Origin: an uncultured Candidatus Binatia bacterium
GTDB lineage: Bacteria > Desulfobacterota > Binatia > UBA9968 > JAJDTQ01
Length of the DNA stretch: 64,000 nucleotides
NCBI GenBank assembly: GCA_965213675.1
Contig: OZ243916.1
Coordinates: 3,360,001-3,424,000, forward strand
Direction of reading: 5' to 3'
Shown one piece after another: positions 8,681-32,750 of the stretch (its first letter is position 1; the number at the start of each line of letters is the position of its first letter). The notes under the pieces are model-generated. The model saw only the letters and a program-made list of their open reading frames with translations, searched no databases and had not been told where the DNA came from. A program made the translations under genes and the position numbers.

Positions 8681-9142
8681 TCACAAGACGCCTCCCTGGC
8701 GAGGCTGCTGGTCGGCTGACCGCATGAGGTTGCGGTGTTCGCGCATCCGGTAGCTGTTCCCGCGGATGTTGACGATGTGGCAGTGGTGCAGGAGCCGGTC
8801 GATGAGGGCAGCAGCCATGACCTCGTCGCCGAGGACGCTGCCCCAGTCCTCGAAGCCCTTGTTGGAGGTGAGCACGGTGGAGGCGCGTTCGTGCCTGGCG
8901 TTGATGAGCTGGAAGAAGAGCACGGCGCCGTCCTGAGTGACGGGCAGGTAGCCGATCTCGTCCACCACGAGCAAGGCGGGATAGGTAAGGACCCGCAGCC
9001 GGCGGGAGAGCTCGCCTGCGGCCTTGGCCTCCAGCAGCGACTCGATCAGTCCGGCCAAGGTTCCGTAGTAGACGCGGTGGCCGGATTCGGCGGCGGCGAC
9101 GGCCAGGCTGATAGCAAGATGAGTCTTGCCGACCCCGGGCGG
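8681..9142 (-). pseudogene. istB: istB 3' part
   Basis: PGVGKTHLA, LLVVDEIGY, TSNK, DRLLHH and GNSYR. Confidence 0.9.
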
Positions 9143-9150
9143 ACCCGCCA

Positions 9151-9627
9151 CATATTGCCCGTTATCACGGTCGCGAGATAACCATTCGTTACCCGTTCCA
9201 TCCTCGTGCTGGCGAGACGATGGCGGTCATCCGGCGCCACCGGTTCCGTGGCATGAGCGTCTTCGTTGTCAGGCAGCCCGACGGAACGCTGGCGCAGATC
9301 CCTGCATGGATGTGCGCCACGGAGGCGGGCGCGATGTCGGTGACGAAGTCCCCACGCCTTCCAGTGGCCGAACTGCACACGCTTCGCATTACCGTCGACG
9401 CCCTTCTATCATCGCTCTCCAAACCCCCCAACGAAGGAGAGCCACATGGGCAAGAACGGGATTCGTCGTCAGAGAGATCTGCTGAAGCTGTTGGAGCCAG
9501 GGCCGGTGCTCGCACCGGAGTTGCTCAAGTCGGTCGTGCCGCTGCTGGCGACACTGCTGCTGCAAGCGGTGGAAGCCGAGGCGCAAAGCGCCGCGGAAAC
9601 GGTGACGGTGGAGGGAGCGAGCAATGA
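9151..9627 (+). CDS. Small accessory protein of the recombinase element (Y4bD/DUF5372-like), 5' end split by integration
   Basis: The IRYPFHP..G and PDGT..IPAWM motifs begin upstream of the first ATG (9220). Confidence 0.55.
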   Translation, partial: HIARYHGREITIRYPFHPRAGETMAVIRRHRFRGMSVFVVRQPDGTLAQIPAWMCATEAGAMSVTKSPRLPVAELHTLRITVDALLSSLSKPPNEGEPHGQERDSSSERSAEAVGARAGARTGVAQVGRAAAGDTAAASGGSRGAKRRGNGDGGGSEQ

Positions 9628-9631
9628 GTAA
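9446..9631 (+). CDS. Small hypothetical protein of the recombinase element
   Basis: AGGAG RBS before the ATG. The stop overlaps the recombinase start. Confidence 0.45.
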   Translation: MGKNGIRRQRDLLKLLEPGPVLAPELLKSVVPLLATLLLQAVEAEAQSAAETVTVEGASNE

Positions 9632-11577
9632 GGTCTCGGCCGATCATCTCTCCCGTAAGGCGTTTGTCTACATCCGTCAATCCACCCCGGACCAGTTGAG
9701 ACACAATCACGAGAGCCGGCGGCGGCAGTACGGCCTGACGGTGAGAGCCCGGAAGTTGGGATGGGGCGAGACGGTGGTGATCGACGAGGATCTCGGCCGT
9801 TCGGGCAGTGGCACGGCACGGCCGGGGTTCGAGCGGTTGTTGTTGGCGATCTGCGAGGGACGGGTGGGCATTGTCCTGGCGTTGGAGGCTTCACGCCTCG
9901 CCCGCAACGGCCGCGACTGGCACACGCTGCTTGAGTTCTGCGGGCTGGTGGGGTGTCTGCTCGCCGACGAGGAGGGCGTCTACGACCCGCGCCTGCCCAA
10001 CGACCGTCTCCTTCTGGGCATGAAAGGGACCCTGTCGGAGCTTGAGCTGTCCACGATGCGTCAGCGCTCGCTGGAGGCGCTGCGCCAGAAGGCGCGCCGT
10101 GGCGAGCTCCTGCTGAACGTCGCCGTGGGCTACGTGAAGGTTCCGCGAGACCGGATCGTCAAGGATCCCGACCGGCGCGTGCAGGAGGCGATCAGCTTGG
10201 TGTTCCGCAAGTTCTCAGAGTTCCAGAGCGTTCGGCAAGTCCATCTTTGGCTCCGTCAGGAGGAAGTGCTGCTGCCGGCAGTGGACGGCGAGCCGGGTGA
10301 CGGTGGAAGGCGGCCGCAAGCGGGTCAGCCGGGGCCATCGCCGGGACCGCGAGGCCTGGGACGTGTTGATCGTGGATCACCATGAGGGTTATGTTTCCTG
10401 GGAGGAGTTCGAGAGGAACCAGCGTTTGATCGCCGACAACGCCAACTGCAAGGGGTTGATGACACGGGGCGCGGTTCGCCGTGGCGATGCCCTGCTGGCG
10501 GGGCTCTTGCGCTGCGGTCACTGCGGCCGGCGGTTGCATGTTTCCTATAGCGGCACCGACGGCTACTGCGTTCGCTACAGTTGCCGCGGGGCGCACCTCA
10601 ACCATGGGACTCGGCGCTGCATCTCGTTCGGCGGCGTTCGTGTGGACTCGGCGGTTGCCGAGGAGGTGCTACGGCTGTTGAGCCCGTTGGGCATCGAGGC
10701 CTCGGTGGAAGCCGTGACGATGAGGGAGGACAACGTCGCCGAGACGCGGCGCCAGGTGGAGCTGGGTTTGACCCAGGCGCGCTACGAGGCGGATCTTGCG
10801 CGTCGCCAGTACGATGCGGTGGACTCGCAGAACCGGCTGGTGGCGGCGGAGCTCGAGCGCAGATGGAACGAGCGGCTGGCGGAGGTGGCGAGGCAGGAAG
10901 AGCGGTTGGCGGCCACGGCGGCTGTCCAGCCGGATGCCTTGTCCGGCGAGGACAGAGAGCGGCTGCTGGCGCTCGGGGGCGACCTTGAGACGGTCTGGGA
11001 GCACCCCGGCGCCACGGCGGAAACCCGCAAGCGGATACTGCGCGCGGTGCTGGAAGAGATCGTCGCCACCTCGGCCGAGGACCGTATCGAACTCCTGCTG
11101 CACTGGCGCGGTGGCGATCACACCCGCCTGAGCGTTGCCCGCAACCGCACCGGGCAACATCGGTGGCGGACCAGCGCGGAGGTCGGCGAGCTGATCCGCG
11201 GCCTTGCCCGACAGCAGCCGGACAGCGCCATAGCGGCCACGCTGAATCGGCTGGGCAAGCGGACCGGCCGCGGCAACGCATGGACGGAGATGCGGGTCCG
11301 CAGCTTCCGGTGCCATCACACGGTTCCCGTGTACCGGCCGGGCGAGATGGGGGAACGCGGAGAACTCACTCTCAAGGAGACTGCGGGCAGGCTCAGGGTC
11401 AGCACGATGACGGTCCTGCGTCTCATCAGCGCCGGAACGATTACGGCGCGGCAACTCTGCAAGGGGGCGCCCTGGGCGGTGCCGGAGGCGCAGATCACGG
11501 GACTCGAAGGCGCGGAGGTGGTTCCCCACCATCCGCTAACAGCCAACACGGATCAGAAAGAACTGGATTTCCAATAA
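9624..11577 (+). pseudogene. Large serine recombinase (resolvase, recombinase, Zn ribbon, HTH) with internal deletion/frameshift near 10285
   Basis: VYIRQST, DLGRSGSG..RPGF, SRLARN and LLRCGHCG. Split into ORFs 9624-10385 and 10297-11577. Confidence 0.85.
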
Positions 11578-11614: not shown

Positions 11615-11950
11615 GCCGATAAAAATGACGTTTTCGCGGCGATCCAGGAAGCCGAGTTCGTGGAGGCTCTCGATCTGCTCGCGCTTGATGCTGGGCTGGA
11701 AGGCGAAGTCGAACTGGGCCAGGGTCTTCACGGCCGGCAGCCGCGACGAGCGCATGGCGGTCTGGAGGCGGCGGTTGTTGCGCAACCCGATCTGGGCGTC
11801 CAACAACTGCTCGATAGCCTCGCTGGCGGTGGCCGCCCCGCTGTCGGCCTGGGCCAGGACGTCGTCGACGGCCTCGAGCGCGCCCGGCATCTTCAGGTCC
11901 GCCAGCATCGCCCGCAGCCGGTCGCGCCGGTTGCCTGCCTCGGCCCTCAT
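11615..11950 (-). pseudogene. istB: istB 5' part
   Basis: KTLAQFDFAFQPSI..ENVIFIGPP. Confidence 0.88.
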
Positions 11951-12969
11951 GACACGGCCTCCGCATAGGCGCTGAGCGAGCGCCGCTCGACGTCTACGGT
12001 GACGGGCAGGGGGCGCCGGGCTTGCTGTGGAAGCGTGTGCATACCAAGGCGCCGATACGGGCAACTCGCCAACGGCAGCAGCGCCTGTAGCTCGTCACGC
12101 TCGAAGCGGTCCACCGGGCGCTCCCTGGTGGTGCCGTGCCAGCGCCGGTTCGCGGTTCCCTCAAGCCACAAGCGCACCTGCTCGTTCAGGTCCTCGTCGT
12201 TCAGGAACTCCCGGCCGTAGAAGAAGTTGTTGCGGATGTAGCGGATCGGGCGCTCCACCTTGCCCTTGGTTTGGGCTCGGTACGGCCGGCATGCCCGAGG
12301 CCGGAACCCCCAGTGCGCGGCGAACCGTAAGAAGTCCGCGTTCAACACCAACTCGCCCCCGCCCGCGCGGCCGTCCGACACCACCACCGAACGCATCTGG
12401 TCGAACTACAGCTCCTGCGGCACCCCGCCGAAGCACTCGAAGGCGCTCTCCAGCCCTTCGATCAGCACTGCCATCGTCTGCCGCCTGTAAAACCGCAGCC
12501 ACAACAGCCGGGAGTGGCTCAGAACCGTCACCAGAGCGTGCCGCCGCCCCCAGGGAAGCGTGAACGTCGCAAAGTCCACCTGCCCCTGCCGTCCCGCCGG
12601 CGTCTCGAACCGCACCACCGCCTCCGCCGTCTCCCGCGGCCGTACCGACCGAACGTACTCCCTCACACGGACGTACCCGCCCGTGTACCCCGCCCCTCGT
12701 ACCTCGTCGTATAGCCGCTTCGCCGACAACCGCGGATACTCCTCCAGTCGCGCCTCGATGATCCCCTTGTACGGATCCAGCTTGTGACACACCGCCGGTC
12801 TCGCCCTGTACCGCGTCCCGCCTCCCGACAGATCCCGGTCTAACTGCCCCGTCTCCACCCACTCGTGGATCGTCCGGCGACTCACCCCGAACCGCCGCGA
12901 CAGCTCCGTCTTCGTTACACCCCGTTCCAGATAGTGCCTAAGCAGCATCCTCGTCTCCCATCCGTGCAT
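11947..12969 (-). pseudogene. istA: istA transposase with in-frame TAG at 12406-12408
   Basis: RFETPAGRQGQVDF, FGGVP..L*FDQM and CRPYRAQTKGKVER. Both ORF pieces are in the same frame. Confidence 0.9.
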
Positions 12970-13285: not shown

Positions 13286-13528
13286 GCATCGCGTACTGCC
13301 GCGTAAGCTTCGTCCTAGCGACTTGACCGGTCTATGAGGAAATCCACCTTATTGGCGGACAGGACGCACCGTGTGGCGTTGACCACGGTCTTTCTCGCTT
13401 ACACCCGACCCGCCGGCATTGACCAAGGTGTCCGTCGGCAGTAAGAGTTTGAACGCGGATTACGCCCCAAGCCATTGATTTTGTTAGAAACGTCTGTACA
13501 CCTTTCAGGCTCTGCATCTCCTTATTCT

Positions 13529-13611
13529 GTTATAACTACAATAATTGTATGAATAGTGTTGGCAACTATGTGATTGTCGTGCTAGACTCTCAGCACTGAC
13601 CATGAGGAGGA
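13529..13611 (+). promoter_or_regulatory. Putative promoter, operator and RBS of the ubiquitin-like operon
   Basis: Palindromes GTTATAAC and TACAAT-A-ATTGTA, TTGGCA-18-TAGACT with TGn, and GAGGAGG RBS. Confidence 0.45.
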
Positions 13612-13617
13612 CCATAA

Positions 13618-13812
13618 ATGGCGAGAAAACCCACGATCCGCGAGCTTGAACAGCTCTTGGAGTCCGAAGAGGATACCCCCATCGAAATACTGCCGAACGG
13701 CGAGATTCGCGCCCGGGGGGGGAGCGATGCCGCAGAGCGGGGCTACAAGAAGCCTCTCACAATGCGAGAGGACCTCGGCGGCGAGTATGGGCGAGGGGGG
13801 ATCCGGGCATGA
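13618..13812 (+). CDS. 64-aa protein, candidate modifier/substrate of the E1-E2-JAB module
   Basis: Strong RBS, ATGA overlap with the next gene, C-terminus LGGEYGRGGIRA. Confidence 0.7.
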   Translation: MARKPTIRELEQLLESEEDTPIEILPNGEIRARGGSDAAERGYKKPLTMREDLGGEYGRGGIRA

Positions 13813-14183
13813 ATCTGACAAGGGTTCGCCATGAGATCGCGGCCGCTCAGCAGTACTTCGACTACGTGGAGGGCCATCCAACCCCTGAAGGAGGCGTGAT
13901 TGCGTTGATCGCCTTGCAGACAAGCAGGGATGTGTACACGATGGCCGTCTCCTTCCCGGAGTCTTACCCGAACGGGATGCCGGAGGTGCATGTCAGGAGG
14001 CCCGCGTTGCGACCATCTCCCCACAGGTACACGGACAACAAAATCTGTTTCTTGCATCCGCGCATGTGGAACCCGGGGCGCCACAACCTCGCGTTCGTGA
14101 TTCAGCGAGCGGCGAAGTGGTTCGCGAAGTACGAGGTATACCTCGAGACAGGAAAATGGGCCGGCGTCGAAATTAAGCACTAG
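13809..14183 (+). CDS. Prokaryotic E2 (UBC-like) conjugating enzyme
   Basis: FPESYPNGMPEV, PHRYTDNKIC (catalytic Cys position), WNP and terminal GKWAG. Confidence 0.75.
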   Translation: MNLTRVRHEIAAAQQYFDYVEGHPTPEGGVIALIALQTSRDVYTMAVSFPESYPNGMPEVHVRRPALRPSPHRYTDNKICFLHPRMWNPGRHNLAFVIQRAAKWFAKYEVYLETGKWAGVEIKH

Positions 14184-14187
14184 TACG

Positions 14188-14718
14188 ATGGCGATCGAAT
14201 TCAAGCCATTGCCGATGATGGCATTGCGAAGCAGGCCCGGCGAGGTCCTGGATGAGGTGTCCCGAGATGGCGCAGCGTTCCTCATCGAGAGAAACGGGCA
14301 ACAGAAGGCTTGTCTTGTACCGATATCGTACTTCCTTCCAGACATTCAGACGTCCCGCGTCGCGGAGGAGTTGGACAAGATCATCGACTCGAACGAGCAC
14401 TACCGGATCACAATCAGCGGCCAGCGGGAGATTCAACTCATATTCCGGGAGTTCAGTGGCGAAACGCAGGTCGACGTGACGGTAACGCTACCCCACGGCT
14501 ATCCGAACAAAGCGCCGGTTGTATACGCGGCGCCGATCGATGACGGGTGTCCACACCGTTGGCCGGATGGGACGTTGTGCATATACGGTGCCGTAGCTGT
14601 GTGGAACCCAGGAAAACACGACGTGATGCACGCGGTGGCGCTGTTCAGACGGTGGATCCAGCACTACTCGGTTTGGCGGCAGGCCGGACAATGGCCGACG
14701 GAGGGAACTGAACCATGA
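14188..14718 (+). CDS. Phd/YefM antitoxin-like domain fused to an E2-like domain
   Basis: N-terminal ALRSRPGEVLDEV..AFLIERNG..ACLVP. C-terminal LPHGYPNKAPVV, PHRWPDGTLC, WNP and GQWP. Confidence 0.72.
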   Translation: MAIEFKPLPMMALRSRPGEVLDEVSRDGAAFLIERNGQQKACLVPISYFLPDIQTSRVAEELDKIIDSNEHYRITISGQREIQLIFREFSGETQVDVTVTLPHGYPNKAPVVYAAPIDDGCPHRWPDGTLCIYGAVAVWNPGKHDVMHAVALFRRWIQHYSVWRQAGQWPTEGTEP

Positions 14719-15566
14719 AGGGTCGGTTGTTCGCGAGGATCGAACAGCTATTCGATGTGAAGGCGTTCGAAGACCTTTGGGTGTTGATTGCAGGGTGCGG
14801 ATCGGGCGGTGGCCAAGTGGCGCTGCAGTTGGCCATGTCTGGAGTGAAGAAGTTCATCCTGGCGGACACGGATAAGCTGGAAGTGGAAAATGTTATCCGG
14901 CACGTCTGCGGGATCCGGTACCTGGGTTGGAAGAAGACGGCGGCCCTTGCTGACGTCTTGAGTGACCGCAACCCGCAGATCGAAGTCAAAGAATTTTACG
15001 GCGACGTAACAGCGTGGCCGAGACTGGCAGAGGAGGTCGAGCGCGCGAGCGTTGTAGTCTTGGGGACGGACAACGAACCGAGCCGGTATCGGCTGAACGA
15101 GGTCTGTGTGGAAACGGCGACGCCGTTCACGGTTGGTCGAGTCTTTACGCGAGGAATTGGGGGTGAGGTGTACTCCTACAGGCCCGGGATCGGCGGCTGC
15201 CTGGCCTGCCTTGAGGGGCTTCTTGAGCGGAGCCAATACCGCGACGGTGTCAGGGAAATCGACCTCGTTTCGGAGGAGGAGCGGCAGAAGGTGTACGACC
15301 TTGAAATCGAGGAGATCAAGGACTCGCCCGGCCTATCGGTGGATATCGGGTTCATCGCAGCCTTCCACACGCGGTTCACTTTGGACGCACTGGGCCACGA
15401 AGCGGAGTCCCCACCTAAGTTTATGACGCCGATCGACCATAACTACCTAGTGTGGGGAAATCGAGCCGTGTACCCGTTCTCGAAGAACTTCGAACTGCAG
15501 CGCATGAAGCTGCCACCGCAGGACGGATGTCTGGTTTGTGGAGGACAAGATGAAGGCCAAGAGTAA
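14715..15566 (+). CDS. ThiF/E1-like adenylating enzyme
   Basis: GCGSGG, DTDKLEVENVIRH, K, TDN and two CxxC motifs (CLAC, CLVC). Confidence 0.9.
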   Translation: MKGRLFARIEQLFDVKAFEDLWVLIAGCGSGGGQVALQLAMSGVKKFILADTDKLEVENVIRHVCGIRYLGWKKTAALADVLSDRNPQIEVKEFYGDVTAWPRLAEEVERASVVVLGTDNEPSRYRLNEVCVETATPFTVGRVFTRGIGGEVYSYRPGIGGCLACLEGLLERSQYRDGVREIDLVSEEERQKVYDLEIEEIKDSPGLSVDIGFIAAFHTRFTLDALGHEAESPPKFMTPIDHNYLVWGNRAVYPFSKNFELQRMKLPPQDGCLVCGGQDEGQE

Positions 15567-16467
15567 GGTGCGGGAGGTACGCTTGGAGATCCCGGGAGTC
15601 GTCCTGGAGAGCGTGTTCGAGGAGTGCGACCGCTATGACCGCGAAGAGACGGGGGGGCGCGTGGTAGGCCATTTCACCATAGATTTCGGGACGCTGGTGG
15701 TGCACGTCGGGGGAGTGATTGAGCCGGGTCCAAATGCCCACCGCACAAGCACCAGCTTCTTTCAAGACGGCGATCACCAAGCTGAGGTGTTCCGCCAACT
15801 CGAGGCGGAAGACCCATCGATCGAGCATCTTGGCAACTGGCATACACATCATGTGAACGGATTTCCGAGGCTGAGTGCAGGCGACGTGGCGACCTATCGC
15901 CGGATCGTGAACCACCAGTTACACAACCTGGATTTCTTCTACGCATTGCTTGTGACGAATAGAAACGAAGGCCGGACCGGACTGGACCGATATGCAGTAC
16001 GGCACCACGTGTTGTTTCGTGGTGAAGAGGCCGTCCACGAAATCCGACCGGCCGATGTACACGTAACGGTCGGGCCGAGGATCTGGCCAAAGGAGGCAGA
16101 CTCTTCCACACAAGCTCCTGGCGCAGGTGGCGCAGAGGACGACGGGGCGCGCGGGATTGTTGAAGTACGGGGGCGGGACCAAAGTGTCCTAGGCGTGCTG
16201 TGCCCCTCGATGGAACCCCGGGTGTCAAACCAAACGGGAACGTTCTTTTGGAAGGGTTCGCTGCCGTTAATCGACGGGTCCACGGTAGAGATTCGGGTCG
16301 CCGAAGTCGAAGACGACGGCGGACTGCTCTACTACCCCATCGTCTCAGGCGTGTCGGCGGATGTGGCTGAGTTGTGCGAAACACCATTCCCGAGCGCGTC
16401 CCACGCGGTCCGTGCGTTGGAGTCGCAGATAAATCGGGAGATTTACGAGTCCGCGATAAGGCGGTGA
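15550..16467 (+). CDS. JAB/MPN+ metallo-isopeptidase with C-terminal extension
   Basis: ETGG and GNWHTHH....LSAGD. GGAGGA RBS before ATG 15550. Confidence 0.85.
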   Translation: MKAKSKVREVRLEIPGVVLESVFEECDRYDREETGGRVVGHFTIDFGTLVVHVGGVIEPGPNAHRTSTSFFQDGDHQAEVFRQLEAEDPSIEHLGNWHTHHVNGFPRLSAGDVATYRRIVNHQLHNLDFFYALLVTNRNEGRTGLDRYAVRHHVLFRGEEAVHEIRPADVHVTVGPRIWPKEADSSTQAPGAGGAEDDGARGIVEVRGRDQSVLGVLCPSMEPRVSNQTGTFFWKGSLPLIDGSTVEIRVAEVEDDGGLLYYPIVSGVSADVAELCETPFPSASHAVRALESQINREIYESAIRR

Positions 16468-16477
16468 GGGCCAAAAT

Positions 16478-17302
16478 ATGGAAGTGTTGACGCTTTACGT
16501 CGGACAAGGGAATTTCGCCGTCATCCGCCACGGTAGGCAGGCTATCGCAGTGGACACTCGGTGGCTTGCTGACCAATCAGACGATATCGAGTCGACGGTG
16601 GGCCGCTTCCTGCAACGGCGGGAACTTGTGGGCGTCGTGTTGACCGGGTTTGATGACGATCACGCCGATCCCGTCGGGCTGGACTGGTTTCTTGAGAACT
16701 ATACGCCCGGCTGGGTGATGTACCCAAAATACTACAAGGATACCGACAACGCGGAAGCGGTCTTCAACGTGGTTCGGAAGCACGAGCGGCGTCGCCAGGG
16801 CACAGCAAACCCGCTTGAGCGCGTTTCTGTACGGCTTGATCGGCTGGAGTCCCGGTACCTCGATGATCTGTCGGAGGAATTCCAGCTAGAGTTGTTCTCA
16901 CCCCACGTCGAGGACATGGACAGCTCTAACAACTGCAGCATCGTGCTGAAGGTGGAAGGAATCGGTCCGGGCGGATTTACATACTTGGTTACGGGCGACA
17001 CGGAGGTCCCCCGGTGGGACCGGATCGTCCAACTTTTCGACGACGCGTTGGACTCGGACGTTCTGGCGGCGCCACACCACGGATCGAAAAACGCCGCTCA
17101 CCCTGGGATGGTCTTGGCGGTCACACCGAACACGGTGCTTATCAGCGCGGGAGTCGACAACCAGTACGGGCACCCGGACAGAAAAGCGGTGCAGTTGTAT
17201 CTGCGGGTGGCGAAGCGCGTATTTCGGACAAACGTGCGGAACGGAATTTCGCTTCTCACAAGGCGAAACGGCGGGGAGTTCCAGACTACCCGTGTGCGTT
17301 AA
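16478..17302 (+). CDS. ComEC/Rec2-type metallo-beta-lactamase-fold hydrolase
   Basis: YVGQG, TGFDDDH (variant of HxHxDH), NNCSIV, TGD, APHHGS and ISAG..NQYGHP. Confidence 0.88.
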   Translation: MEVLTLYVGQGNFAVIRHGRQAIAVDTRWLADQSDDIESTVGRFLQRRELVGVVLTGFDDDHADPVGLDWFLENYTPGWVMYPKYYKDTDNAEAVFNVVRKHERRRQGTANPLERVSVRLDRLESRYLDDLSEEFQLELFSPHVEDMDSSNNCSIVLKVEGIGPGGFTYLVTGDTEVPRWDRIVQLFDDALDSDVLAAPHHGSKNAAHPGMVLAVTPNTVLISAGVDNQYGHPDRKAVQLYLRVAKRVFRTNVRNGISLLTRRNGGEFQTTRVR

Positions 17303-17462
17303 CGGTCGATGGAATTTTCTTCTGCCCATTGGCGCCACCAACATCCTGGCGCTCTTAGGCGAGCCCTAGACTGAATGATTGGGAACACTTCCAATGCGTT
17401 GGGGCTCTTCAACACAACGGTGTGGAACGGGAAAAGCCCAAACAACCCGAGAGGAACGAATT

Positions 17463-18587
17463 ATGACCTTTGAACTACCAACACGCGGGCTCGTTTTTTG
17501 GCCAGTCGGAAACGGTGACAGCACCACCATCGTCATCGACCCCAAGACCTGTCTCCAGATAGACCTCAACCACCTCGAGAAATCCGAGGACGACGACGCC
17601 TCTTGGCCCGTGGTTGATGAACTTGTCAAGCACCTGCCCAAAGTCAACCGCCGCCCCTATCTCGCTGCGTTCGCGCTCACACATCCTGATCAGGACCATT
17701 GCCGGGGCTTCGCCAAACTCCTCAACGAAGTCGATATCGGTGAATTGTGGTTTACACCTAGAGTGTTCCGTGAGTACAAGAAGGACCTCTGCGACGACGC
17801 GGTGGCATTCAAGAAGGAGACGGAACGCCGCGTTCAGAAGGCTATCGACGCCAAGCACGCCCCAGGCTCGGGCGACCGCATTCGGGTCTTCGGCTACTCC
17901 GACCTGCTGGAAGAGGACGACTTCAAGGATTTCCCCAAGGATCGCCTAACTGTCCCCGGTAATGAACTTACCGTCGTCGACGAGAAGGACTTGGCTGGCC
18001 ACTTCCGCGCCTTCGTCCACGCTCCGTTCAAAGATGATGACGCGGGCGAGCGGAACGATACGAGCCTCGCCATGCAAGTCACGCTCCACGCTGGCCCGCA
18101 AAGACTTCGCGCGCTCCTTCTTGGAGACCTTCCCTACCCGATCATCAAGCGCATCTTCGCGATTAGTGACGCCGAGGACCTCGCCTGGAATGTGCTCCTC
18201 GCACCCCACCACTGCTCGAAGGCCGTAATGTACTGGAAGAATGACGGCGACGACGACGAGAAGCTCAAAAAGCACATCGTCGACGAAATGGACGAGGCGG
18301 CACAGGACCCGAATCGTGTCGTATCCAGCTCCAATCCCGTGCCGTCATCCAACAAGGCTGGCGACAACCCGCCTCACGCCAAGGCAAAGACGCAGTACGA
18401 GACCATCACCGACTCCTTCCTGTGTACGATGGACCAGGATGAACCTATCGTGGCTGAACTTGACCACCAAAGGATCGTTCTCGCCGGGGTTGCGACGGCC
18501 TCCAAGTCCGCATCGCAGGCCGCAGACGAAGCGCGCGGCTCAAACAGACCCCCCGACGGCGCCCACACCTACGGCTGTGGCAAATGA
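17463..18587 (+). CDS. ComEC-like MBL hydrolase with a conjugation-type C-terminal tail
   Basis: FWPVGNGDS, THPDQDH, NDTS, GD and APHHCS. Ends HTYGCGK. Confidence 0.85.
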   Translation: MTFELPTRGLVFWPVGNGDSTTIVIDPKTCLQIDLNHLEKSEDDDASWPVVDELVKHLPKVNRRPYLAAFALTHPDQDHCRGFAKLLNEVDIGELWFTPRVFREYKKDLCDDAVAFKKETERRVQKAIDAKHAPGSGDRIRVFGYSDLLEEDDFKDFPKDRLTVPGNELTVVDEKDLAGHFRAFVHAPFKDDDAGERNDTSLAMQVTLHAGPQRLRALLLGDLPYPIIKRIFAISDAEDLAWNVLLAPHHCSKAVMYWKNDGDDDEKLKKHIVDEMDEAAQDPNRVVSSSNPVPSSNKAGDNPPHAKAKTQYETITDSFLCTMDQDEPIVAELDHQRIVLAGVATASKSASQAADEARGSNRPPDGAHTYGCGK

Positions 18588-21500
18588 GTAATGGCTACAC
18601 GCTCGCTGGCGAACAGCTAAGGGAGATCGCCGAAACATCGGAAGGCACCGTTCAAATTCATGACGAAACCACACGGCCAAGCGGCTACCGCCAGTTCGAC
18701 GTAAGCATGCGCTTCGACGGCCTTCAACGTGTCGAAGACGGACTTGCAGTGCGAGCCCGTGAGCCATTCCGCGTCATTGTTTCACCTGCCTTCCCTTTCA
18801 AACATCCCGTTGTCGAGACGCCTCACTCTCGTTTCGCCGGCTTCCGGCACGTACAGTGGCGGCGGAGCCCCTGCCTGTACCAAAGCTCCTCCGATTGGGG
18901 CCCAAGCGACGGCATGTACGGCTTCATTACGCGCCTCGACGCCTGGATACGCGACGCCGCACTTAACAATCTCGACCCGGACGACGCACCCCTCCACCCA
19001 CCAGTCGAGTACCCCACGGTCCATCGCCTAATTGTGCCCAAGGCAAATACGCCGGCGGTCTCTGGCACGCCATGGTTTGGATTCGCCAAACTCCGCGAAA
19101 GGAACCATCGCACCGAGATCATTGGATGGGAAGAGAACAGCCAAGAAGGCTCTGACTTCGCGCCTGCAATCCTCCTCCACGAGAATCTTCCCTTCGAATA
19201 CCCCGAAACTGTCCACGCTCTACTGAAAGAACTCGAATTCCACGGAATCGACTATGTGCCCTTTGTCTTCCGACTTGCCGCCCAGGCACGACGCAGCGAC
19301 GCAGGCACACCGCTAACCGTAGTTCTTGGAACTCCGATGCGCCGCGTCGACCCGGGGGGGCCTACCCTTCAGCACTTGGCCGTGTGGGAGATTTCTGCCG
19401 ACGACGCGGACAAGCTGCGCGAGCTGAACATCTCCGCGCAGTTCCGCGGGTCACCGCGATGGGAAGCCGCGACGACGGCGGTCGCCGAATGGGCTGTGTT
19501 TGCCAAGGTGGGGTGGTGCATCGTCCGTGAGATGCGGCCCGAAGTGACCAGCAGACGCGACCATTCATCAGCCATGGCTTGGTTTCGTGGAAAGCGTGTG
19601 GCCATCTGGGGTTGCGGCGCCGTAGGCACTCACGTGGCGGAATCGATTGTACGCGCCGGGGCCAGAACCGTTGAACTCGTCGACAACAAGACTGTTGCAC
19701 CCGGTCTCCTAGTACGGCAAGTCTTCGAAGACGCCGACATCGGAGAGTTTAAGGCCCAAGCGCTCGCCGAACGACTTAAACGGATCGAACCTGACCTCGA
19801 GACACATGTTTCAACCGACGACCTTGTCCTACGTATCATAGGTCCACACCCGGTCCCGGAGGTGGACTTGATAGTCGACTGCACAGCTTCATCGGCCGTT
19901 CAGACAGCCCTCGAGCGAGCACTCCAGGCCGTCGACTCACGCCCCGCGATAGCTGCTGTATCCATCGATAGCCAAGCCGCCACGGCCATTGCCACTCTCT
20001 CTTCGCGCAACCACAGCGGTGCGACCCTCGACCTTGTTCGCCGGCTCAAGCTGGAAGCATGTAGCACACCGGCGCTTTCGAAGGTCCTTGAGGCATTCTG
20101 GCCAAGAACAACGCCAAGTGAGCGCTTTCAGCCAGAGCCCGGCTGTTCGGAACCGACGTTCATCGGTTCCGACGCAGATCTTGCCGCGCTATCTGCGCGC
20201 ATGCTGAATTCCATCACTCACGCTATTGGAAACCCCCGCGATGGCCACACGGGGGCAGGTTGGTTGTTGGAAGAATCGGGAGCGTTACGTGGTTTCGCGT
20301 GGCCTCCGGACCACACCCTGAGGGATGAGGGGCGGGGCTACTCCGTCAGGGTATCTTCACTGGCCGCGCGGGAAATGCGAGGATGGGCTAGGCGTTCCGC
20401 ACGTACGGTCGGCTCAACAGTCGAGACGGGCGGCCTCGTCTTCGGCGAGCTCAACGAAGCCGCGACCGTTCTCTGGGTAACAGATGTCGAGGGACCGCCA
20501 CCCGACAGCGAGGCAGCTGGGGATCATTTCACCTGCGGCACGGACGGCATGGAAACCGTTGCCCAAGAAAGGCAACGCAGGTTCCGTGGATCTGTAGACT
20601 GCCTCGGTAGTTGGCACACCCACCCAACGTCAGCACCCCATCCAAGTCGCGTCGACATCGGCGCTGTCATACAGCTTCTCGCCAACCCGGGTTCGACCCG
20701 TCGAACTTGCCTTGTTTTGATCCTCTCTGGTGACCCGGATGACCCAAGACTGGGCGCGTATGCCTTCAGAACAAAACTAGTCGGCGAAACGCTCATCCGC
20801 ATCCAACCAAGCGCGGCTGCAACCGCGTCCCTTGGGCCAAAGCCAAAGAAACCGCGCAACATCGGAACTGCCCTCTCAGGCGGAGGCTCGCGCGCCATCG
20901 CGTTCCACCTCGGGTGCCTGCGCGCCCTGCACGACCTCGATCTACTCAGCCGTGTTCAGGTAATTTCGAGCGTCTCCGGCGGGTCTATAATCGCGGCCAT
21001 GTACGCCTATTCTTGCGACTCGTTTCGGGAGTTTGACGCGCGTGTTGTAGAGCTTCTTCATCGAGGATTCAAACGGGATATCTTCCGCGAGGTGTTCAAG
21101 CTGGTTTCAATTGGGAAGATCCTGCGACGCCATGTCAGGGCGACCGCGTCTTTCCTATCTCGCACGTTCCTTCGGCTACTTCACGCCGTCGTGAGACCGG
21201 TTGTGGCTCATCGCCAAGGCCCGCCGCCGACCCGCACGTTCAGCCGCACGGAGGCGTTTCGCGACATCATTGCCACCTCCCAATTCGGTGACACCATCGT
21301 ACGCGACGTCGCCCGACATTCACTCCATACGGTCATCAATGCCACAGAACTACGAACCGGCTCCGCATTTCGGTTCGGAAGCAGCCAAAGCGGCTGCTGG
21401 CGATTCGGCACGATTCCCCCCGAAGACGCTCTGGTTGCAGACGCCGTGGCTGCCTCGGCGGCGTACCCGGCACTCTTCCCGGCACTCGAGCGCGAGTACC

Positions 21501-21994
21501 GCTTCACGAAGAACGGGTCCAGCACCGATGCCGCGCGCGTTCTGCTTACCGACGGTGGGGTCTTTGAGAACCTCGGCGTGAATCCGATGGAGCCGGGCCG
21601 GACACCTTCGGTCACCACTAACGTCTTCGACCCCGACTACATTATTTGCTGCGACGCGGGTGCTGGTCTATTCGATGATGACAGCTACCCGACACGTTTG
21701 CACACCCGGATATACAGATCGTTCCTCACGGTCTTTCGCAAGGTCCAAGACGCCACCCGAAAACGCCTACACCACCTTGCCGACGCCGGGGAAATCTCCG
21801 GCTTCGCGTTATGCTATCTCGGGCAGCAGGACAATGCCTTGCCCTGGGTACCAGCAGGTCTTCCTAGAAGGGATGAGGTTCGAGATTACCCTACCGACTT
21901 CGCCGCGATGTCAACGGAAGACGTCGATCGGTTAGCTCTCCGTGGAGAACTCCTGATGAGGCTTCTCGTTGCGTACTACCTCCCAGACCTCTAA
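18584..21994 (+). CDS. E2-E1(ThiF)-JAB-patatin phospholipase fusion
   Basis: E2: FPFKHP..HVQW..PCLY. E1: GCGAVG, LVRQ, DCTA, EPGCSEPTF. JAB: ETGG, GSWHTHP..PS..D. Patatin: LSGGGSRA, SVSGG, DGG. Confidence 0.85.
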   Translation: MSNGYTLAGEQLREIAETSEGTVQIHDETTRPSGYRQFDVSMRFDGLQRVEDGLAVRAREPFRVIVSPAFPFKHPVVETPHSRFAGFRHVQWRRSPCLYQSSSDWGPSDGMYGFITRLDAWIRDAALNNLDPDDAPLHPPVEYPTVHRLIVPKANTPAVSGTPWFGFAKLRERNHRTEIIGWEENSQEGSDFAPAILLHENLPFEYPETVHALLKELEFHGIDYVPFVFRLAAQARRSDAGTPLTVVLGTPMRRVDPGGPTLQHLAVWEISADDADKLRELNISAQFRGSPRWEAATTAVAEWAVFAKVGWCIVREMRPEVTSRRDHSSAMAWFRGKRVAIWGCGAVGTHVAESIVRAGARTVELVDNKTVAPGLLVRQVFEDADIGEFKAQALAERLKRIEPDLETHVSTDDLVLRIIGPHPVPEVDLIVDCTASSAVQTALERALQAVDSRPAIAAVSIDSQAATAIATLSSRNHSGATLDLVRRLKLEACSTPALSKVLEAFWPRTTPSERFQPEPGCSEPTFIGSDADLAALSARMLNSITHAIGNPRDGHTGAGWLLEESGALRGFAWPPDHTLRDEGRGYSVRVSSLAAREMRGWARRSARTVGSTVETGGLVFGELNEAATVLWVTDVEGPPPDSEAAGDHFTCGTDGMETVAQERQRRFRGSVDCLGSWHTHPTSAPHPSRVDIGAVIQLLANPGSTRRTCLVLILSGDPDDPRLGAYAFRTKLVGETLIRIQPSAAATASLGPKPKKPRNIGTALSGGGSRAIAFHLGCLRALHDLDLLSRVQVISSVSGGSIIAAMYAYSCDSFREFDARVVELLHRGFKRDIFREVFKLVSIGKILRRHVRATASFLSRTFLRLLHAVVRPVVAHRQGPPPTRTFSRTEAFRDIIATSQFGDTIVRDVARHSLHTVINATELRTGSAFRFGSSQSGCWRFGTIPPEDALVADAVAASAAYPALFPALEREYRFTKNGSSTDAARVLLTDGGVFENLGVNPMEPGRTPSVTTNVFDPDYIICCDAGAGLFDDDSYPTRLHTRIYRSFLTVFRKVQDATRKRLHHLADAGEISGFALCYLGQQDNALPWVPAGLPRRDEVRDYPTDFAAMSTEDVDRLALRGELLMRLLVAYYLPDL

Positions 21995-22256: not shown

Positions 22257-23312
22257 TTAGGTGCTTCTCTTGAGGGCGATGTGGAGCAGTTTCGTTTGGT
22301 AGGTAGCGATGCTGTGATCGCTGAGGAGGCTACCCCATTTGTTCGTCCCATTGAAGATCGCCCGAACCCGTCTGCCCCAACCGACCGTGTAGAGCAGGGT
22401 AGCCCTGGAGAAGTCGCCGTCCTTGCAGTTGGTGATAAATCGCATGTTGCCGCCGTGTTCGTAGCCGGAGAAGTACCGTTCGAGCATGTTGCCGATCCAT
22501 ACGAGGAAGGTAAGGAAAGGGGCAAGGCGCCCTAACGCGCGAAGCCCCTTTGTCAGGAGGGCTATCGCCGTGCCGGTTAAAGGGACCATCGGGACGACGT
22601 CGGCCGAGTTCACGATCCTGTAGACCGGACTCTTGATTTGCCCAAGCCACGCCTCGCTCCCGCTCCGGGGCGACCCGTAGGTGTAGCAGGCGGCAATCTG
22701 TCGCTCCGCGCTCAGGCGTCTGGTGGCAATGGTCGCTACTGCCCCGCCGAGGCTGTGGCCCGTAATGAAAAGGGGCTTGTTCGCAACCCCTTCCATATCC
22801 AGCGCCGCCTCAATCGCATCCTCGACATCATTGTACTGGCCCTGGAAACCGGCATGGACGTGTCCGCCAGTTCGGCTCCGCGCCTTATAGGATTTCAGAT
22901 CAGCCCTGATATCACGTATGGATGTTGATTCCGTTCCCCGGAATGCTAGGACGGCGTGATCCGTACTGTAGGCTACAAAGGCTTGGGTGGCGTTTACGCT
23001 GATAGTTTTCGCCAAGGTCCAGCCGATCTTCTTCAACCGACTACTCAGTCTGGCCTCTTCAGCTTCGTAATCTTGTCCGCAGGCCTTCGTGATGGCTCCG
23101 AGTATCTTCGCGTCAGAGCTCTTCGGCAGTCCTCTCAGGGCACGTTGGACGAGCTTAAGAACGGCCTCTCCCTCGAAGGCGGATTTGTCGAACTTCAGAT
23201 AGGCCAATTCCGACATGTAGGCCATGAGCCAAGCAGCTCGATCGCTGTACGCCTTGCGGTAGTCGGGCATCTTCTTGCCGAGAACCTTATCGTGCAAATC
23301 CTGTTCGACCAT
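22257..23312 (-). CDS. Lipase class 3 family protein
   Basis: AFRGT, VHAGF, TGHSLGGA, YGSPR, DVVP and a C-terminal DH. Confidence 0.9.
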   Translation of the reverse strand: MVEQDLHDKVLGKKMPDYRKAYSDRAAWLMAYMSELAYLKFDKSAFEGEAVLKLVQRALRGLPKSSDAKILGAITKACGQDYEAEEARLSSRLKKIGWTLAKTISVNATQAFVAYSTDHAVLAFRGTESTSIRDIRADLKSYKARSRTGGHVHAGFQGQYNDVEDAIEAALDMEGVANKPLFITGHSLGGAVATIATRRLSAERQIAACYTYGSPRSGSEAWLGQIKSPVYRIVNSADVVPMVPLTGTAIALLTKGLRALGRLAPFLTFLVWIGNMLERYFSGYEHGGNMRFITNCKDGDFSRATLLYTVGWGRRVRAIFNGTNKWGSLLSDHSIATYQTKLLHIALKRST

Positions 23313-24403: not shown

Positions 24404-25699
24404 CAGGTTGTTGAAAAACTTGGCCTGACGCGGATAACAGTAAATAACATATTGGTATCGACCGGGAGTAAGGGATGAGAGGAACGGATCCGCGCCAGGA
24501 AGGGATGTTCAGCTATGTGTCGCTGGAGGCGCGGGTGCGGGCGGACCATCCATTGCGAGCGATACGGAAGATGGTGAACCGTGCGCTTGAAGGACTGACG
24601 CGGGAGTTTGAGGAGATGTACTCGCACACGGGGCGGCCTTCGATAGCGCCGGAGCAGTTGCTGCGTGCGTTGCTGCTTCAGGTGCTTTACTCGATCCGTA
24701 GCGAACGGTTGTTGGTGGAGCAACTGGACTACAACTTGCTGTTCCGGTGGTTTGTGGGACTGTCGATGGACGATCCGGTGTGGGGCCACTCGACGTTCAC
24801 CAAGAACCGACAGCGGTTGATCGGGTCGGACATGGCGCGGGCCTTTTTCGGGCAGATACTGGGCCAGGCCCGCGAAGGACGCCTTTTGTCGGATGAACAC
24901 TTCAGCGTGGACGGGACGTTGCTGGAGGCGTGGGCGTCGATGAAGTCGTTCCGGCCGAAAGACGGAGGCGGACGGCTTGGTGGCGGCGGACGCAATGCGG
25001 AGGCGGACTTCCACGGCGAGAAGCGCAGCAATGCGACCCACCAGTCGAGCACCGATCCGCAGGCACGGCTGTACCGCAAGGGCCAGGGACGGGAAGCGAA
25101 GCTGCGCTACCTGGGCCATGCGTTGATGGATAACCGCCATGGACTGATCGTCGATACCCGTACCACCGAAGCCGGCGGCCGGGCTGAGCGCGAGGCGGGC
25201 TTGGCGATGATTGCCGCGCGTCCCGGCGCCGATCGGCTCACCCTCGGGGCGGACAAGGGATACGATACAAAAGACTTTGTGGAGGGACTGCGCTGCGCCA
25301 ACGTCAGTCCGCATGTGGCCCAGAACGACACCCGCCAGCGTTCCGCCATTGACCGGCGCACCACCCGTCACCGTGGTTACGCGGTGAGCCAGCGCATCCG
25401 CAAACGGATCGAGGAAGGCATCGGCTGGGCCAAGACCATCGGAGGCATGCGCAAACTCAAGCACCGGGGCCTGCCCAAGGTCGACTTCCAGTTCACCCTC
25501 ACCTTCGCCGTCTACAACCTGGTGCGACTGCGTACCCTGGGAGTCGGAGGTTGAGCATGCGTCCATGGCCTCCGGGCGTCTGCGCCGGCTTCGTTGGCCT
25601 GAAATGGCCCGCGAAACAAGTTCTGCTTCACGCCCTGAAGCCGGCTTTTCCATCGATTCTCTCACAAACGCTCAAATCTAGGCGTTTTTCCACGGCCTG
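24404..25699 (+). mobile_element. IS5-family insertion sequence
   Basis: Ends caggttgttgaaaaac and gtttttccacggcctg, flanked by TTAG and CTAG. Confidence 0.85.
24475..25554 (+). CDS. IS5-family transposase (intact ORF)
   Basis: HPLRAIR, GRPSIAPE, VDGT, GADKGYD, RKRIEE and YNL. Confidence 0.92.
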   Translation: MRGTDPRQEGMFSYVSLEARVRADHPLRAIRKMVNRALEGLTREFEEMYSHTGRPSIAPEQLLRALLLQVLYSIRSERLLVEQLDYNLLFRWFVGLSMDDPVWGHSTFTKNRQRLIGSDMARAFFGQILGQAREGRLLSDEHFSVDGTLLEAWASMKSFRPKDGGGRLGGGGRNAEADFHGEKRSNATHQSSTDPQARLYRKGQGREAKLRYLGHALMDNRHGLIVDTRTTEAGGRAEREAGLAMIAARPGADRLTLGADKGYDTKDFVEGLRCANVSPHVAQNDTRQRSAIDRRTTRHRGYAVSQRIRKRIEEGIGWAKTIGGMRKLKHRGLPKVDFQFTLTFAVYNLVRLRTLGVGG

Positions 25700-26407: not shown

Positions 26408-26661
26408 GCCTTCATCGGTGTTCGACAAATACCGGCGGTCTCATCCCAACTCGGGCTGTTTGTCGAGGGCGACCTACAGACCACGCATCGGACGGACGTG
26501 CTGTAGCAGCGCTCCATTTCTAGGGGGGTGAGGTGGTCCTGGTTTGTAGGACAGGGAGGCGGCGGAGTTAAGGCGTATTCCAGACGTTCAATCATGCCGC
26601 CAAGGTCCGCGAAGCACTCGCGGGTAAACTTCGCCAGATCAAGCATGATCTGATTTGTCTT

Positions 26662-26687
26662 GCATACCAGACAAAAGTCTGGTATGC
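26662..26687. promoter_or_regulatory. Perfect 11-4-11 palindrome, candidate LexA operator
   Basis: GCATACCAGAC-AAAA-GTCTGGTATGC directly upstream of lexA. Confidence 0.6.
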
Positions 26688-26695
26688 GCATCCTC

Positions 26696-27298
26696 ATGAC
26701 ACCCTTCACTCCACCGGGGGAGACCCGGGACAAGGTTTACCGGTTCGTGCGCAGGCGGACCCTGGAGGAGCTTCCTCCCACGGTTCGGGAGGTCCAGGAG
26801 GCGTTCCGATTCAGGGCGGTGCAGACAGCCCGGCAGCACCTGGAGCGGCTGGTGGCCGAGGGGCGGCTGGTCAAGGCGCACGGGAAATCCAGGGGCTACC
26901 GACTGCCCCGGGAGCCCGGGACGCTGTTGGTACCGTTGCTGGGGCGGGTGCAGGCCGGCGGTCTGCGGGCGGCCATCGAGGAATGCGAAGGCTACATCCC
27001 GGTCCAGTCACGGGGCTCGGAGGAAGTGTTCGGGCTCCGGGTCCAGGGAGAAAGCATGACCGGAGCGGGCATCCTTCCCGGCGACATCGTCGTCGTGAGG
27101 CAGCAGGCGGAAGCCGCCTCGGGGGACATCGTCGTGGCCCTGGTGGGCGACGAGGCCACCATCAAGAGGCTACGCCTGCGCCAGAGCCGGATCGAGCTGC
27201 ATCCGGAGAACCCGGCTTTCGCAACCATCGTTCCCAGGGCCGATGAGTGCACCGTCCTGGGCAAGGTGGTGGAGGTGAGACGCTATCTGGAAGGATAG
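26696..27298 (+). CDS. lexA: LexA repressor
   Basis: PPTVRE wHTH, GRVQAG cleavage site, GESM (Ser) and ATIKR (Lys). Confidence 0.92.
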   Translation: MTPFTPPGETRDKVYRFVRRRTLEELPPTVREVQEAFRFRAVQTARQHLERLVAEGRLVKAHGKSRGYRLPREPGTLLVPLLGRVQAGGLRAAIEECEGYIPVQSRGSEEVFGLRVQGESMTGAGILPGDIVVVRQQAEAASGDIVVALVGDEATIKRLRLRQSRIELHPENPAFATIVPRADECTVLGKVVEVRRYLEG

Positions 27299-27385
27299 AC
27301 CCGAAGGATCGCATGGGCGCGGCATCCGGGGCAACGTGTTCCCGGCGTCCGATCCTTTGCCTTTCGCAGGACACGGAGCGCTTTC

Positions 27386-29588: not shown

Positions 29589-29594
29589 GGAACC

Positions 29595-32750
<3,156 letters not shown>

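Follow-up and report, generated by a model that had tools for sequence, protein, structure and literature searches.

What does the DNA-binding head of an antitoxin do on a bacterial E2? This question is raised by the Phd-E2 fusion gene at positions 14188–14718 (+ strand) of the window analyzed in this study, which is the whole stretch of 64,000 nucleotides taken from contig OZ243916.1 of an uncultured Candidatus Binatia bacterium (assembly GCA_965213675.1). Phd-E2 is encoded by an ATG-started open frame of 176 amino acid residues. The frame starts 5 bases past the stop of the gene for a stand-alone E2 (E2a, 13809–14183), and its TGA stop shares bases with the ATG start of the following gene, which encodes an E1 (ATGA, 14715–14718). 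The gene is the third of 8 genes that run head to tail on the + strand from 13618 to 21994. It is also the third gene of a conserved mobile six-gene operon, hereafter the cassette, whose products are a small protein with an LGGEY motif, E2a, Phd-E2, the E1, a JAB peptidase and a protein with a metallo-beta-lactamase (MBL) fold.

Our results show that 14188–14718 encodes a two-domain protein, in which a Phd/YefM-type N-terminal domain is joined to a minimal E2 of the type found in CBASS, the anti-phage signaling systems based on cyclic oligonucleotides; both identities were obtained by profile and structure comparisons. That Phd-E2 is a dimeric operator-binding E2 tying transcription of its operon to the conjugation pathway is a reading on which we are evenly divided.

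Two domains in one reading frame

The Phd/YefM-fold domain of Phd-E2 spans residues ~5–49 and the minimal E2/UBC core residues ~55–170. On the + strand they correspond to 14188–14334 (residues 1–49, delimited by profile and fold) and 14350–14718 (residues 55–176, delimited by PADLOC, Foldseek and the alignment of the Cys), respectively. The full-length model was predicted with a mean local confidence (pLDDT) of 87.1 and a global score (pTM) of 0.79, and the linker residues P51, D52, and R57 were invariant.

A preliminary description, made from the letters of the window, had noted that the first ~46 residues follow the Phd pattern, and the profile searches bore this out. PhdYeFM_antitox of Pfam (PF02604) matched residues 9–47 of Phd-E2 on model positions 5–43 of 74 (E 2.8e-5, 24.2 bits), a match that is sub-threshold when taken alone. 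A precomputed PF02604 match was also found in about one quarter of the best 120 of the 332 Phd-E2 relatives. A set of 1.84 billion representatives was then searched with a profile of 14 members of the Phd-E2 family. Ranked after the family were stand-alone proteins of 60–110 residues that aligned only to query positions 1–67. Ten of these ~25 N-terminal-only rows were scanned, all ten matched PF02604 and nine of them did so above the cut-off. The stand-alone PF02604 proteins were 30–42% identical to the N-terminal domain of Phd-E2 without internal gaps. Moreover, a profile bridging Phd-E2 with these stand-alone antitoxins reached chains in the PDB, including Rv2865 (E 5.4e-4), RelB (0.0023), 2odk (0.03), and Phd (0.37–0.52).

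The predicted fold led to the same family. The model of residues 1–60 (pLDDT 86.5) showed the order strand, helix, helix, strand, strand, with strand 5–9, helices 10–15 and 17–27 and strands 30–35 and 38–43. When this model was searched with Foldseek, Phd/YefM-type antitoxins made up all of the top 20 and nearly all of the top ~40 rows (best E 6.9e-3; rmsd to 4zlx of 1.6 over 47 columns). Similarly, the top 23 rows from VIA-align were Phd/YefM-type antitoxins with Z-scores of 4.3–6.6, after which the scores dropped to 3.4, and model residues 5–54 were placed on residues 1–50 of Phd. Thus, both a profile match and a structural match to PhdYeFM, the two lines of evidence on which the preliminary description had made its claim depend, were found. 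In addition, R14 and R35 of the Phd domain were invariant in 17/17 sequences and sat on positions 10 and 31 of the PF02604 model. According to the accessible part of the source, R10 and R31 of YefM are essential for operator binding, and Phd's N-terminal domain serves for dimerization and binds the operator (PMC4803016).

The E2 core was modeled as a helix (residues 55–67), four strands, a long loop with Cys131 and a second helix (residues 146–166). It shares its minimal topology with the E2 of E2-CBASS, i.e., type II short CBASS such as that with SmE2 of Serratia, which is described in the accessible part of the source as one helix, four strands, a Cys loop, and one C-terminal helix (PMC12948482). 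PADLOC models of CBASS E2s matched Phd-E2 (best E 4.2e-8), and relatives of Phd-E2 carried precomputed matches to PF26395 (E2-CBASS, Pfam 38.1); it is on these matches of the relatives and on PADLOC that the assignment of Phd-E2 to the E2-CBASS family is based. In the Foldseek search with the full-length model, the best matches were UFC1 and Ubc9, followed by Cdc34, Ubc6, and UEV domains (best E 6.7e-4), and only two rows reached E ≤ 0.001.

Cys131, whose codon is at 14578–14580, aligned with the Cys of the GGKIC motif of UFC1 in a profile search of the PDB. Going by the titles of the PDB entries and the T106C construct, it follows that this Cys of UFC1 is the catalytic Cys116. The preliminary description had found the C-terminal part to resemble the upstream E2, and the motifs it named are real: Phd-E2 and E2a share YPN..P, PH[RK], the Cys, WNPG.H, and a terminal G.W, and they were ~26–37% identical over 66–131 residues. 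It had also called the Cys intact, which holds for this copy and for most of the relatives. In the closer family, the Cys, PH.W, and WNPG.H were kept in 13 of 14 rows, the remaining one (L015) having Ser in place of Cys131. The divergent alignment consisted of 15 rows, from which P0166 was left out as garbled at this position. Among the 14 alignable rows, Cys131 was kept in 10 and replaced in 4, by Ser in L015 (10001–10513), Pro in P0132, Asp in P0150, and Ala in P0153. The flanking PH and WNPG motifs of these four were also altered.

Such replacements would be expected if the E2 domain of Phd-E2 were a non-catalytic, UEV-like partner or sensor for the modifier, E1 or E2a, with the chemistry done by E2a and the Cys a leftover. 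In that case, the Phd domain could still bind DNA. Also in keeping with it are the Cys80 of E2a, which was invariant in 21/21 rows, and the weak Pfam UEV and RWD matches in Phd-E2. A UEV-like E2 is nevertheless unlikely in our judgment: the catalytic motif is kept in most rows of both alignments, which means that in most lineages the catalytic site is under purifying selection.

A total of 332 database relatives of Phd-E2 were found at E ≤ 0.001, which excludes chance resemblance, and each of the best 120 of them covered at least 86% of the query. The loci examined were 16 from a genome scan and one from a metagenome (L021). Phd-E2 was one continuous frame in all 17, which come from independent assemblies. 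Homologs that are always split, which the preliminary description had named as a reason to doubt the fusion, were thus not what was found. Some short rows of the representative search, such as P0153 and P0138, could be split genes or forms of this E2 that lack the Phd domain, or else fragments at contig ends or frameshifted copies. Because many short matches of that search resemble fragments or frameshifted copies, an artifact of gene calling or assembly, or a chance resemblance, was also considered for the fusion as a whole. This explanation is ruled out by the continuous frame in 17/17 loci of independent assemblies and phyla, the invariant linker and the confident two-domain model.

A maximum likelihood tree of E2 domains was built from 60 chosen rows, with fragments and garbled sequences of the representative search left out. 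The 14 E2 domains of fusions formed one branch (support 98/90) apart from E2a, which would fit a single fusion event. Eleven of the 12 E2a rows formed another branch (100/99) that grouped with other stand-alone E2s. Given these separate branches, the two E2s of the cassette are old paralogs and not a recent tandem copy.

The promoter and the proposed role of the Phd domain

A sigma-70-like promoter was called at 13559–13588 (+ strand), upstream of the first gene. It consists of TTGGCA, an 18-nt spacer and TAGACT, with TG before the −10 element; the call is a consensus match only, and 3 such matches were found in the region vs. 2.3 expected. Two candidate operator sites, neither of which has a strand, are associated with it. 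Site 1 is a perfect 6-1-6 palindrome, TACAATAATTGTA, at 13537–13549, just upstream of the −35 element, and contains the half-site TAATTG (13542–13547). It was the sole such site in the window at up to 2 mismatches, where 0.04 were expected by chance. A search for inverted repeats with a minimum length of 8 found none at 13450–13620, the 6-1-6 palindrome falling under that limit. Site 2 is the half-site TGATTG at 13571–13576, which lies between the −35 and −10 elements, 29 bp from site 1.

Similar sites were found in the promoters of other cassettes. When 16 promoters were aligned, the mean column identity was only 45%, and they shared two blocks, AATTAT..TAATTGCA before the −35 element and TGCAATTA before the −10 element, which are mutual reverse complements. 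The palindrome of the window lined up with the first of these blocks in the other loci. CAATTA/TAATTG was present in 10 of the 16 promoters, compared with a mean of 1.3 and a maximum of 5 in 200 shuffles. With a relaxed half-site, 26 occurrences were counted in 1,440 bp of promoter DNA vs. 417 in the 340,178 bp of remaining locus DNA; 12 of the 16 promoters had exactly two. Windows of matched GC content rarely equaled the promoter count (e.g., 0/39 in the window and 2/853 in L006). Nine loci besides the window had paired half-sites that were 18–38 bp apart, and six of these nine shared the spacing of ~29 bp seen in the window (−73/−44, −69/−40, −75/−46, and similar). A degenerate pattern of two half-sites with a fixed 5-nt spacer matched no locus, as its spacing was wrong.

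The Phd domain was also predicted to form a dimer. Two copies of residues 1–60 paired through strand 38–46 with a score of 0.59, compared with 0.00 for the best of 3 controls, a pass that may reflect likeness to solved Phd/YefM dimers and so may not be independent evidence. The runs agreed in at least 93% of the contacts, and the pLDDT of the partner was at least 74. Of 30 proteins with a solved same-chain pair, 20 attained the mark used; of 23 with a single chain in the solved structure, 1 did. Of the two roles that the preliminary description had offered for the Phd domain, dimerization of the E2 thus gains a predicted homodimer, and autoregulation of the operon gains an operator-like motif that is conserved in the cassette promoters and includes 13537–13549, inside the segment 13480–13617 suggested there for binding.

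No match to a DNA-binding family was found in the other cassette proteins by scans of Pfam, NCBIfam, PADLOC, and PHROGs; therefore, the Phd-E2 dimer is proposed as the repressor of the operon. DNA binding, repression, E2 activity, use of the small protein as substrate and coupling are the steps that we infer. Phd-E2 would dimerize via strand 38–46 of its Phd domain, and the dimer would occupy the repeated TAATTG/CAATTA-type half-sites flanking the −35 element of its own promoter and repress it. The tethered E2 domains would engage the conjugation pathway, either by being charged by E1 with the small protein after JAB has trimmed the tail of the latter, or by binding E1, E2a, or the modifier. 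This engagement would alter operator occupancy, as toxin binding tunes repression by Phd/YefM. In the accessible part of the source, the latter is described as conditional cooperativity, in which binding of a partner to the C-terminal part of the antitoxin tunes repression (PMC4803016). As a result, the conjugation machinery and the MBL effector would be expressed according to the state of the pathway.

Several points weigh against Phd-E2 as such a repressor. At the level of the Phd domain, the 24.2 bits scored with PF02604 are below the Pfam cut-off of 29.8, and the match to phd_fam of NCBIfam (TIGR01552; E 0.0071, 15.7 bits) is also under its cut-off of 20.8. Profiles made from the fusion family only, whether of full length or of the N-terminal domain, matched no Phd/YefM chain in the PDB. 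The fold scores are modest (E 6.9e-3 for Foldseek and Z below 7 for VIA-align) because the domain is small, with ~50 residues. The equivalence of R14 and R35 to R10 and R31 of YefM comes from the register of the Pfam model and not from an alignment with YefM of E. coli. At the level of the E2 domain, replacement of Cys131 in 4 of the 14 alignable divergent rows means that catalysis by this E2 is not essential everywhere, and it seems to be dispensable in some lineages. At the level of the promoter, 2 of the 16 (L009 and L010) had no half-site and another 2 had only one. The half-site motif had been read from the very promoters in which it was counted; these belong to related loci and stand out as AT-rich in GC-rich surroundings (GC content of 0.39 vs. 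0.63 in the window). The enrichment is overstated as a result. Finally, the protein that binds the operator is assigned by elimination. The conserved C-terminal half of JAB (~150 residues, ~160–309), which had no match in Pfam, PHROGs, or the sequences of the PDB, is the one remaining candidate for DNA binding among the cassette proteins and could be the operator's binder.

The dimer prediction and the partly circular motif counts would also suit a Phd domain that is a scaffold only. It would not bind DNA and would just dimerize the E2 for chain building or for bridging two substrates, and the promoter motif would be bound by another factor. A further observation bears on this possibility. The small protein of P0280 bears on its N-terminus a Phd domain that shares 44% identity with that of Phd-E2; the module is thus separable. 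A Phd domain of the same type would equally make the small protein bivalent. P0280 fits a separable regulatory or dimerizing module better than a catalytic role specific to the E2. A metagenome scan started from P0280 found one locus (L021) that matched only the small-protein part, and its cassette was an ordinary one. We regard a pure scaffold as improbable. The invariant R14 and R35, at the register of the DNA-binding arginines of YefM, would be superfluous for a dimer interface alone, the palindromic half-sites are conserved amid unconserved DNA, and searches of the cassette with Pfam, PADLOC, and NCBIfam yielded no further DNA-binding domain.

The cassette and its surroundings

The first gene of the cassette, at 13618–13812 (+ strand), encodes the small protein of 64 residues, and its stop overlaps the start of E2a (ATGA). 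The protein is conserved up to LGGEY (residues 53–57), and its tail is not. It was invariant at 28 positions, including L53, G54, G55, E56, and Y57, with LGGEY invariant in 16/16 sequences, and the next 3–7 residues were unconserved. No family of Pfam, NCBIfam, PADLOC, or PHROGs matched the small protein, and the ESM Atlas gave no usable match. A profile search of the PDB gave chance-level matches only (E > 0.4). Searches of Pfam, the ESM Atlas, and the PDB also gave no match to a beta-grasp or ubiquitin-like (Ubl) family. At least 6 longer proteins (P0292, P0294, P0295, P0296, P0288, and P0273) consisted of the small protein in frame with E2a. In these fusions, the first residues of E2a follow LGGEY within 1–4 residues, and in four of them a single Gly or Ala stands between. 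P0273 has an additional N-terminal stretch, and P0271 carries two tandem repeats of the small protein ahead of E2a. With its conserved Gly-Gly and a disposable tail, and with E1 and JAB encoded alongside, the small protein looks like a candidate modifier precursor and substrate of the E1.

The second gene, at 13809–14183 (+ strand), encodes E2a, a stand-alone minimal E2 of 124 residues that matched the PADLOC E2 model (E 5.7e-13) and only weakly UQ_con of Pfam (E 0.0073). Its C80, H72, and WNPG were invariant in 21/21 rows. Similar to the small protein, neither E2a nor Phd-E2 had a match in PHROGs. The gene downstream of Phd-E2, at 14715–15566 (+ strand), encodes an E1-like adenylating enzyme of the ThiF family with 283 residues (Pfam ThiF, E 8.2e-27), in which GCGSGG, RHVCG, TDN, and two CxxC pairs were invariant in 10/10 rows. 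It is followed at 15538–16467 (+ strand) by the gene for a JAB/JAMM peptidase of 309 residues, which scored 25.2 bits with Prok-JAB of Pfam (cut-off 25) and E 5.5e-18 with JAB of PADLOC. Its E37, H102, H104, S113, and D116 were invariant in 9/9 rows. The last gene of the conserved cassette, at 16478–17302 (+ strand), encodes MBL1, a ComEC C-terminal-type metallo-beta-lactamase fold of 274 residues. MBL1 matched ComEC_Rec2 of NCBIfam under the family cut-off (E 7.3e-26) as well as the MBL models of PADLOC. It was present in 17/17 loci and is a likely effector of the cassette.

A more far-reaching reading takes the cassette as a distinct self-regulating ubiquitin-like conjugation system, probably for defense. 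In it, JAB would release a 57-residue modifier that is not a beta-grasp protein and ends in Gly-Gly-Glu-Tyr, and one of the system's own E2s would be its repressor. The operator would be freed when the component that bears the Phd tag (the E2, but the modifier in certain variants) is charged or consumed, so that flux would be turned into transcription. We put this forward as tentative and, on balance, doubtful.

The order Phd-E2, E1, JAB, MBL1 was the same in 17/17 loci, and the small protein and a whole E2a were present in 16 of them. The exception is L013, where a gene for 430 residues on the opposite strand (8802–10216) replaces the 5' end of the cassette, with the small-protein gene and 54 initial codons of E2a missing. 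By eye, its product resembles a DNA methyltransferase, with an NPPF motif. The identities of Phd-E2 in the 16 genome loci ranged from 51 to 82%, with 14 of the 16 at 75–82%. These loci came from Gammaproteobacteria, Arenicellales, Pseudomonadales, Holophagales, Vicinamibacterales, Terriglobia, Binatia, Longimicrobiales, Gemmatimonadetes, and Elusimicrobia. Among the sampled kin, Phd-E2 was found in 1 of 24 other genomes of the same genus and in none of 16 genomes of two other families. The lone match within the genus (G006:C1:2860348-2860872) coincides with locus L004, and this copy was only 79% identical to Phd-E2 of the window, no closer than the copies of other phyla. The identities of 51–82% across many phyla therefore argue for horizontal movement of the six-gene cassette, which would also fit its patchy presence and the mobile-element context.

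Immediately downstream of the cassette, a gene at 17379–18587 (+ strand) encodes MBL2, the MBL-fold protein of a 6A-MBL system (NCBIfam NF058524, 280.5 bits vs. a cut-off of 220). The next one, at 18584–21994 (+ strand), encodes a triple-module protein of 1136 residues, in which a family A E2, an E1 and a JAB are followed by a C-terminal patatin (Pfam Prok-E2_A, ThiF, Prok-JAB, and Patatin; PADLOC E1-E2, E 2.1e-90). Judged by these matches, 17379–21994 is a 6A-MBL pair with a fused patatin phospholipase, a neighbor outside the conserved cassette. A 6A-MBL pair followed the cassette in 6 of the 16 genome loci. The patatin-fused triple-module form followed it in L005, L013, and L014, and a stand-alone patatin gene did so in 6 other genome loci and L021. 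In L011, a patatin gene was upstream on the opposite strand, and L003, L004, and L015 had neither a 6A-MBL pair nor a patatin. At 13378–16189 of L005, the gene of the 6A-MBL enzyme is in two pieces (13378–14259 and 15473–16189) around an opposite-strand open reading frame (ORF) of 532 residues, which may be an insertion.

The patatin also enters the possibility that Phd-E2 is a true antitoxin, which would neutralize a toxic MBL or the neighboring patatin and make the operon an addiction module. Automatic and NCBI names do say Phd/YefM antitoxin, and in the accessible part of their paper Iyer et al. (2006; PMC1779556) speculated that mobile E1/E2/JAB clusters act like toxin-antitoxin systems. 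We find this very hard to believe. Scans of the eight operon proteins with Pfam, PADLOC, and NCBIfam revealed no toxin of the Doc, YoeB, or RelE type, and the patatin neighbor is variable between loci. Moreover, different from Phd/YefM antitoxins, Phd-E2 has no cognate toxin gene and no disordered toxin-binding tail; in the predicted structure, a folded E2 stands where antitoxins carry that tail.

Other genes of the island lie further away. Upstream of the cassette are an IstB fragment (8681–9151, minus strand) and a large serine recombinase in two overlapping frames, 9624–10385 (Resolvase) and 10297–11577 (Recombinase and Zn-ribbon). Two minus-strand ORFs between them and the cassette (11947–12969) had no Pfam match. 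Downstream, a gene for a class 3 lipase (22257–23312, minus strand; Pfam Lipase_3, E 9.8e-23) is oriented toward the end of the patatin-fused gene, with which it is convergent, and encodes a second lipid hydrolase of the island. It is followed by a DDE transposase (24475–25554; DUF772 and DDE_Tnp_1), a LexA-like repressor (26660–27298), two ORFs without Pfam match (27386–29588) and a DnaE-type polymerase (29595–32750). By eye, 26660–32750 resembles a lexA-imuA-imuB-dnaE2 mutagenesis cassette, in which imuA and imuB are putative.

Related systems and implications

Bacterial E1/E2/JAB operons, which include type II CBASS, Bil, Bub, and 6A-MBL, have recently been recognized to act in immunity and to be related to ubiquitination in eukaryotes. 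To our knowledge, how these operons are kept silent and switched on is mostly unknown. Compared with E2-CBASS, the cassette has a separate E1 and JAB and an added Phd domain. No CD-NTase was found among the cassette proteins, and PF18144 had no match across the genome, which is 97.7% complete; therefore, the cassette itself is not a CBASS. Compared with Phd of phage P1 and with YefM, the N-terminal domain of Phd-E2 has the same fold and order of elements (strand, two helices, hairpin), a dimer predicted through the last strand and arginines at model positions 10 and 31. Its gene also lies behind a promoter with paired palindromic sites.

Similar to Bil and Bub, whose operons are known from the Corbett and Sorek laboratories, the cassette has separate genes for an E1, an E2 and a JAB-type peptidase, together with a small Gly-Gly-ending protein that is a possible modifier. 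Different from them, its small protein has no detectable match to a beta-grasp or Ubl family. The words Phd and antitoxin were absent from two preprints on Bil and Bub. The fusions of the small protein with E2a and its tandem repeats recall the polyUbl-E2 fusions mentioned in the footnote to row 6e of Table 1, in the accessible part of Iyer et al. (2006; PMC1779556).

The 6A-MBL system (NF058523/NF058524) is row 6a in Table 1 of the same paper, as far as its accessible part goes (PMC1779556), and the accessible parts of a review and a preprint cite it as an anti-phage system of Pseudomonas. It shares with the cassette the parts E2, E1, JAB, and an MBL-fold protein as well as its mobility. The modules of the cassette, however, are separate genes, its two E2s are of the CBASS type and not of family A, its MBL is of the ComEC type, and it has the LGGEY small protein and the Phd domain in addition. 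Accordingly, 13618–17302 fails the 6A-MBL models, with E1 and JAB scoring 44 bits vs. 320 and MBL1 scoring 38.7 bits with NF058524 vs. 220.

The preliminary description had not known the fusion from described systems. No paper describing it was found in a literature search of main texts that covered few subscription journals, and the nearest case in print is a separate toxin-antitoxin pair beside a multi-ubiquitin cassette in Synechocystis. The architecture as such is on record in databases: PF26395 (E2-CBASS) and PF02604 occur together on the two ESM Atlas clusters closest to Phd-E2, with 98 and 393 members, and a homolog of Phd-E2 goes under the name Phd/YefM antitoxin in one NCBI record. 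What is seen here is a bacterial E1/E2/JAB operon in which one of the two E2s carries a proposed regulatory domain of the antitoxin type.

The label Phd/YefM antitoxin misdescribes the homologs of Phd-E2, which belong to a cassette that is small, highly conserved and found in many phyla. If the proposed role of Phd-E2 is true, the DNA-binding head of an antitoxin would have been reused outside toxin-antitoxin systems, and an E2 that brings along an operator-binding domain would connect a protein-modification cascade very directly with the regulation of transcription.

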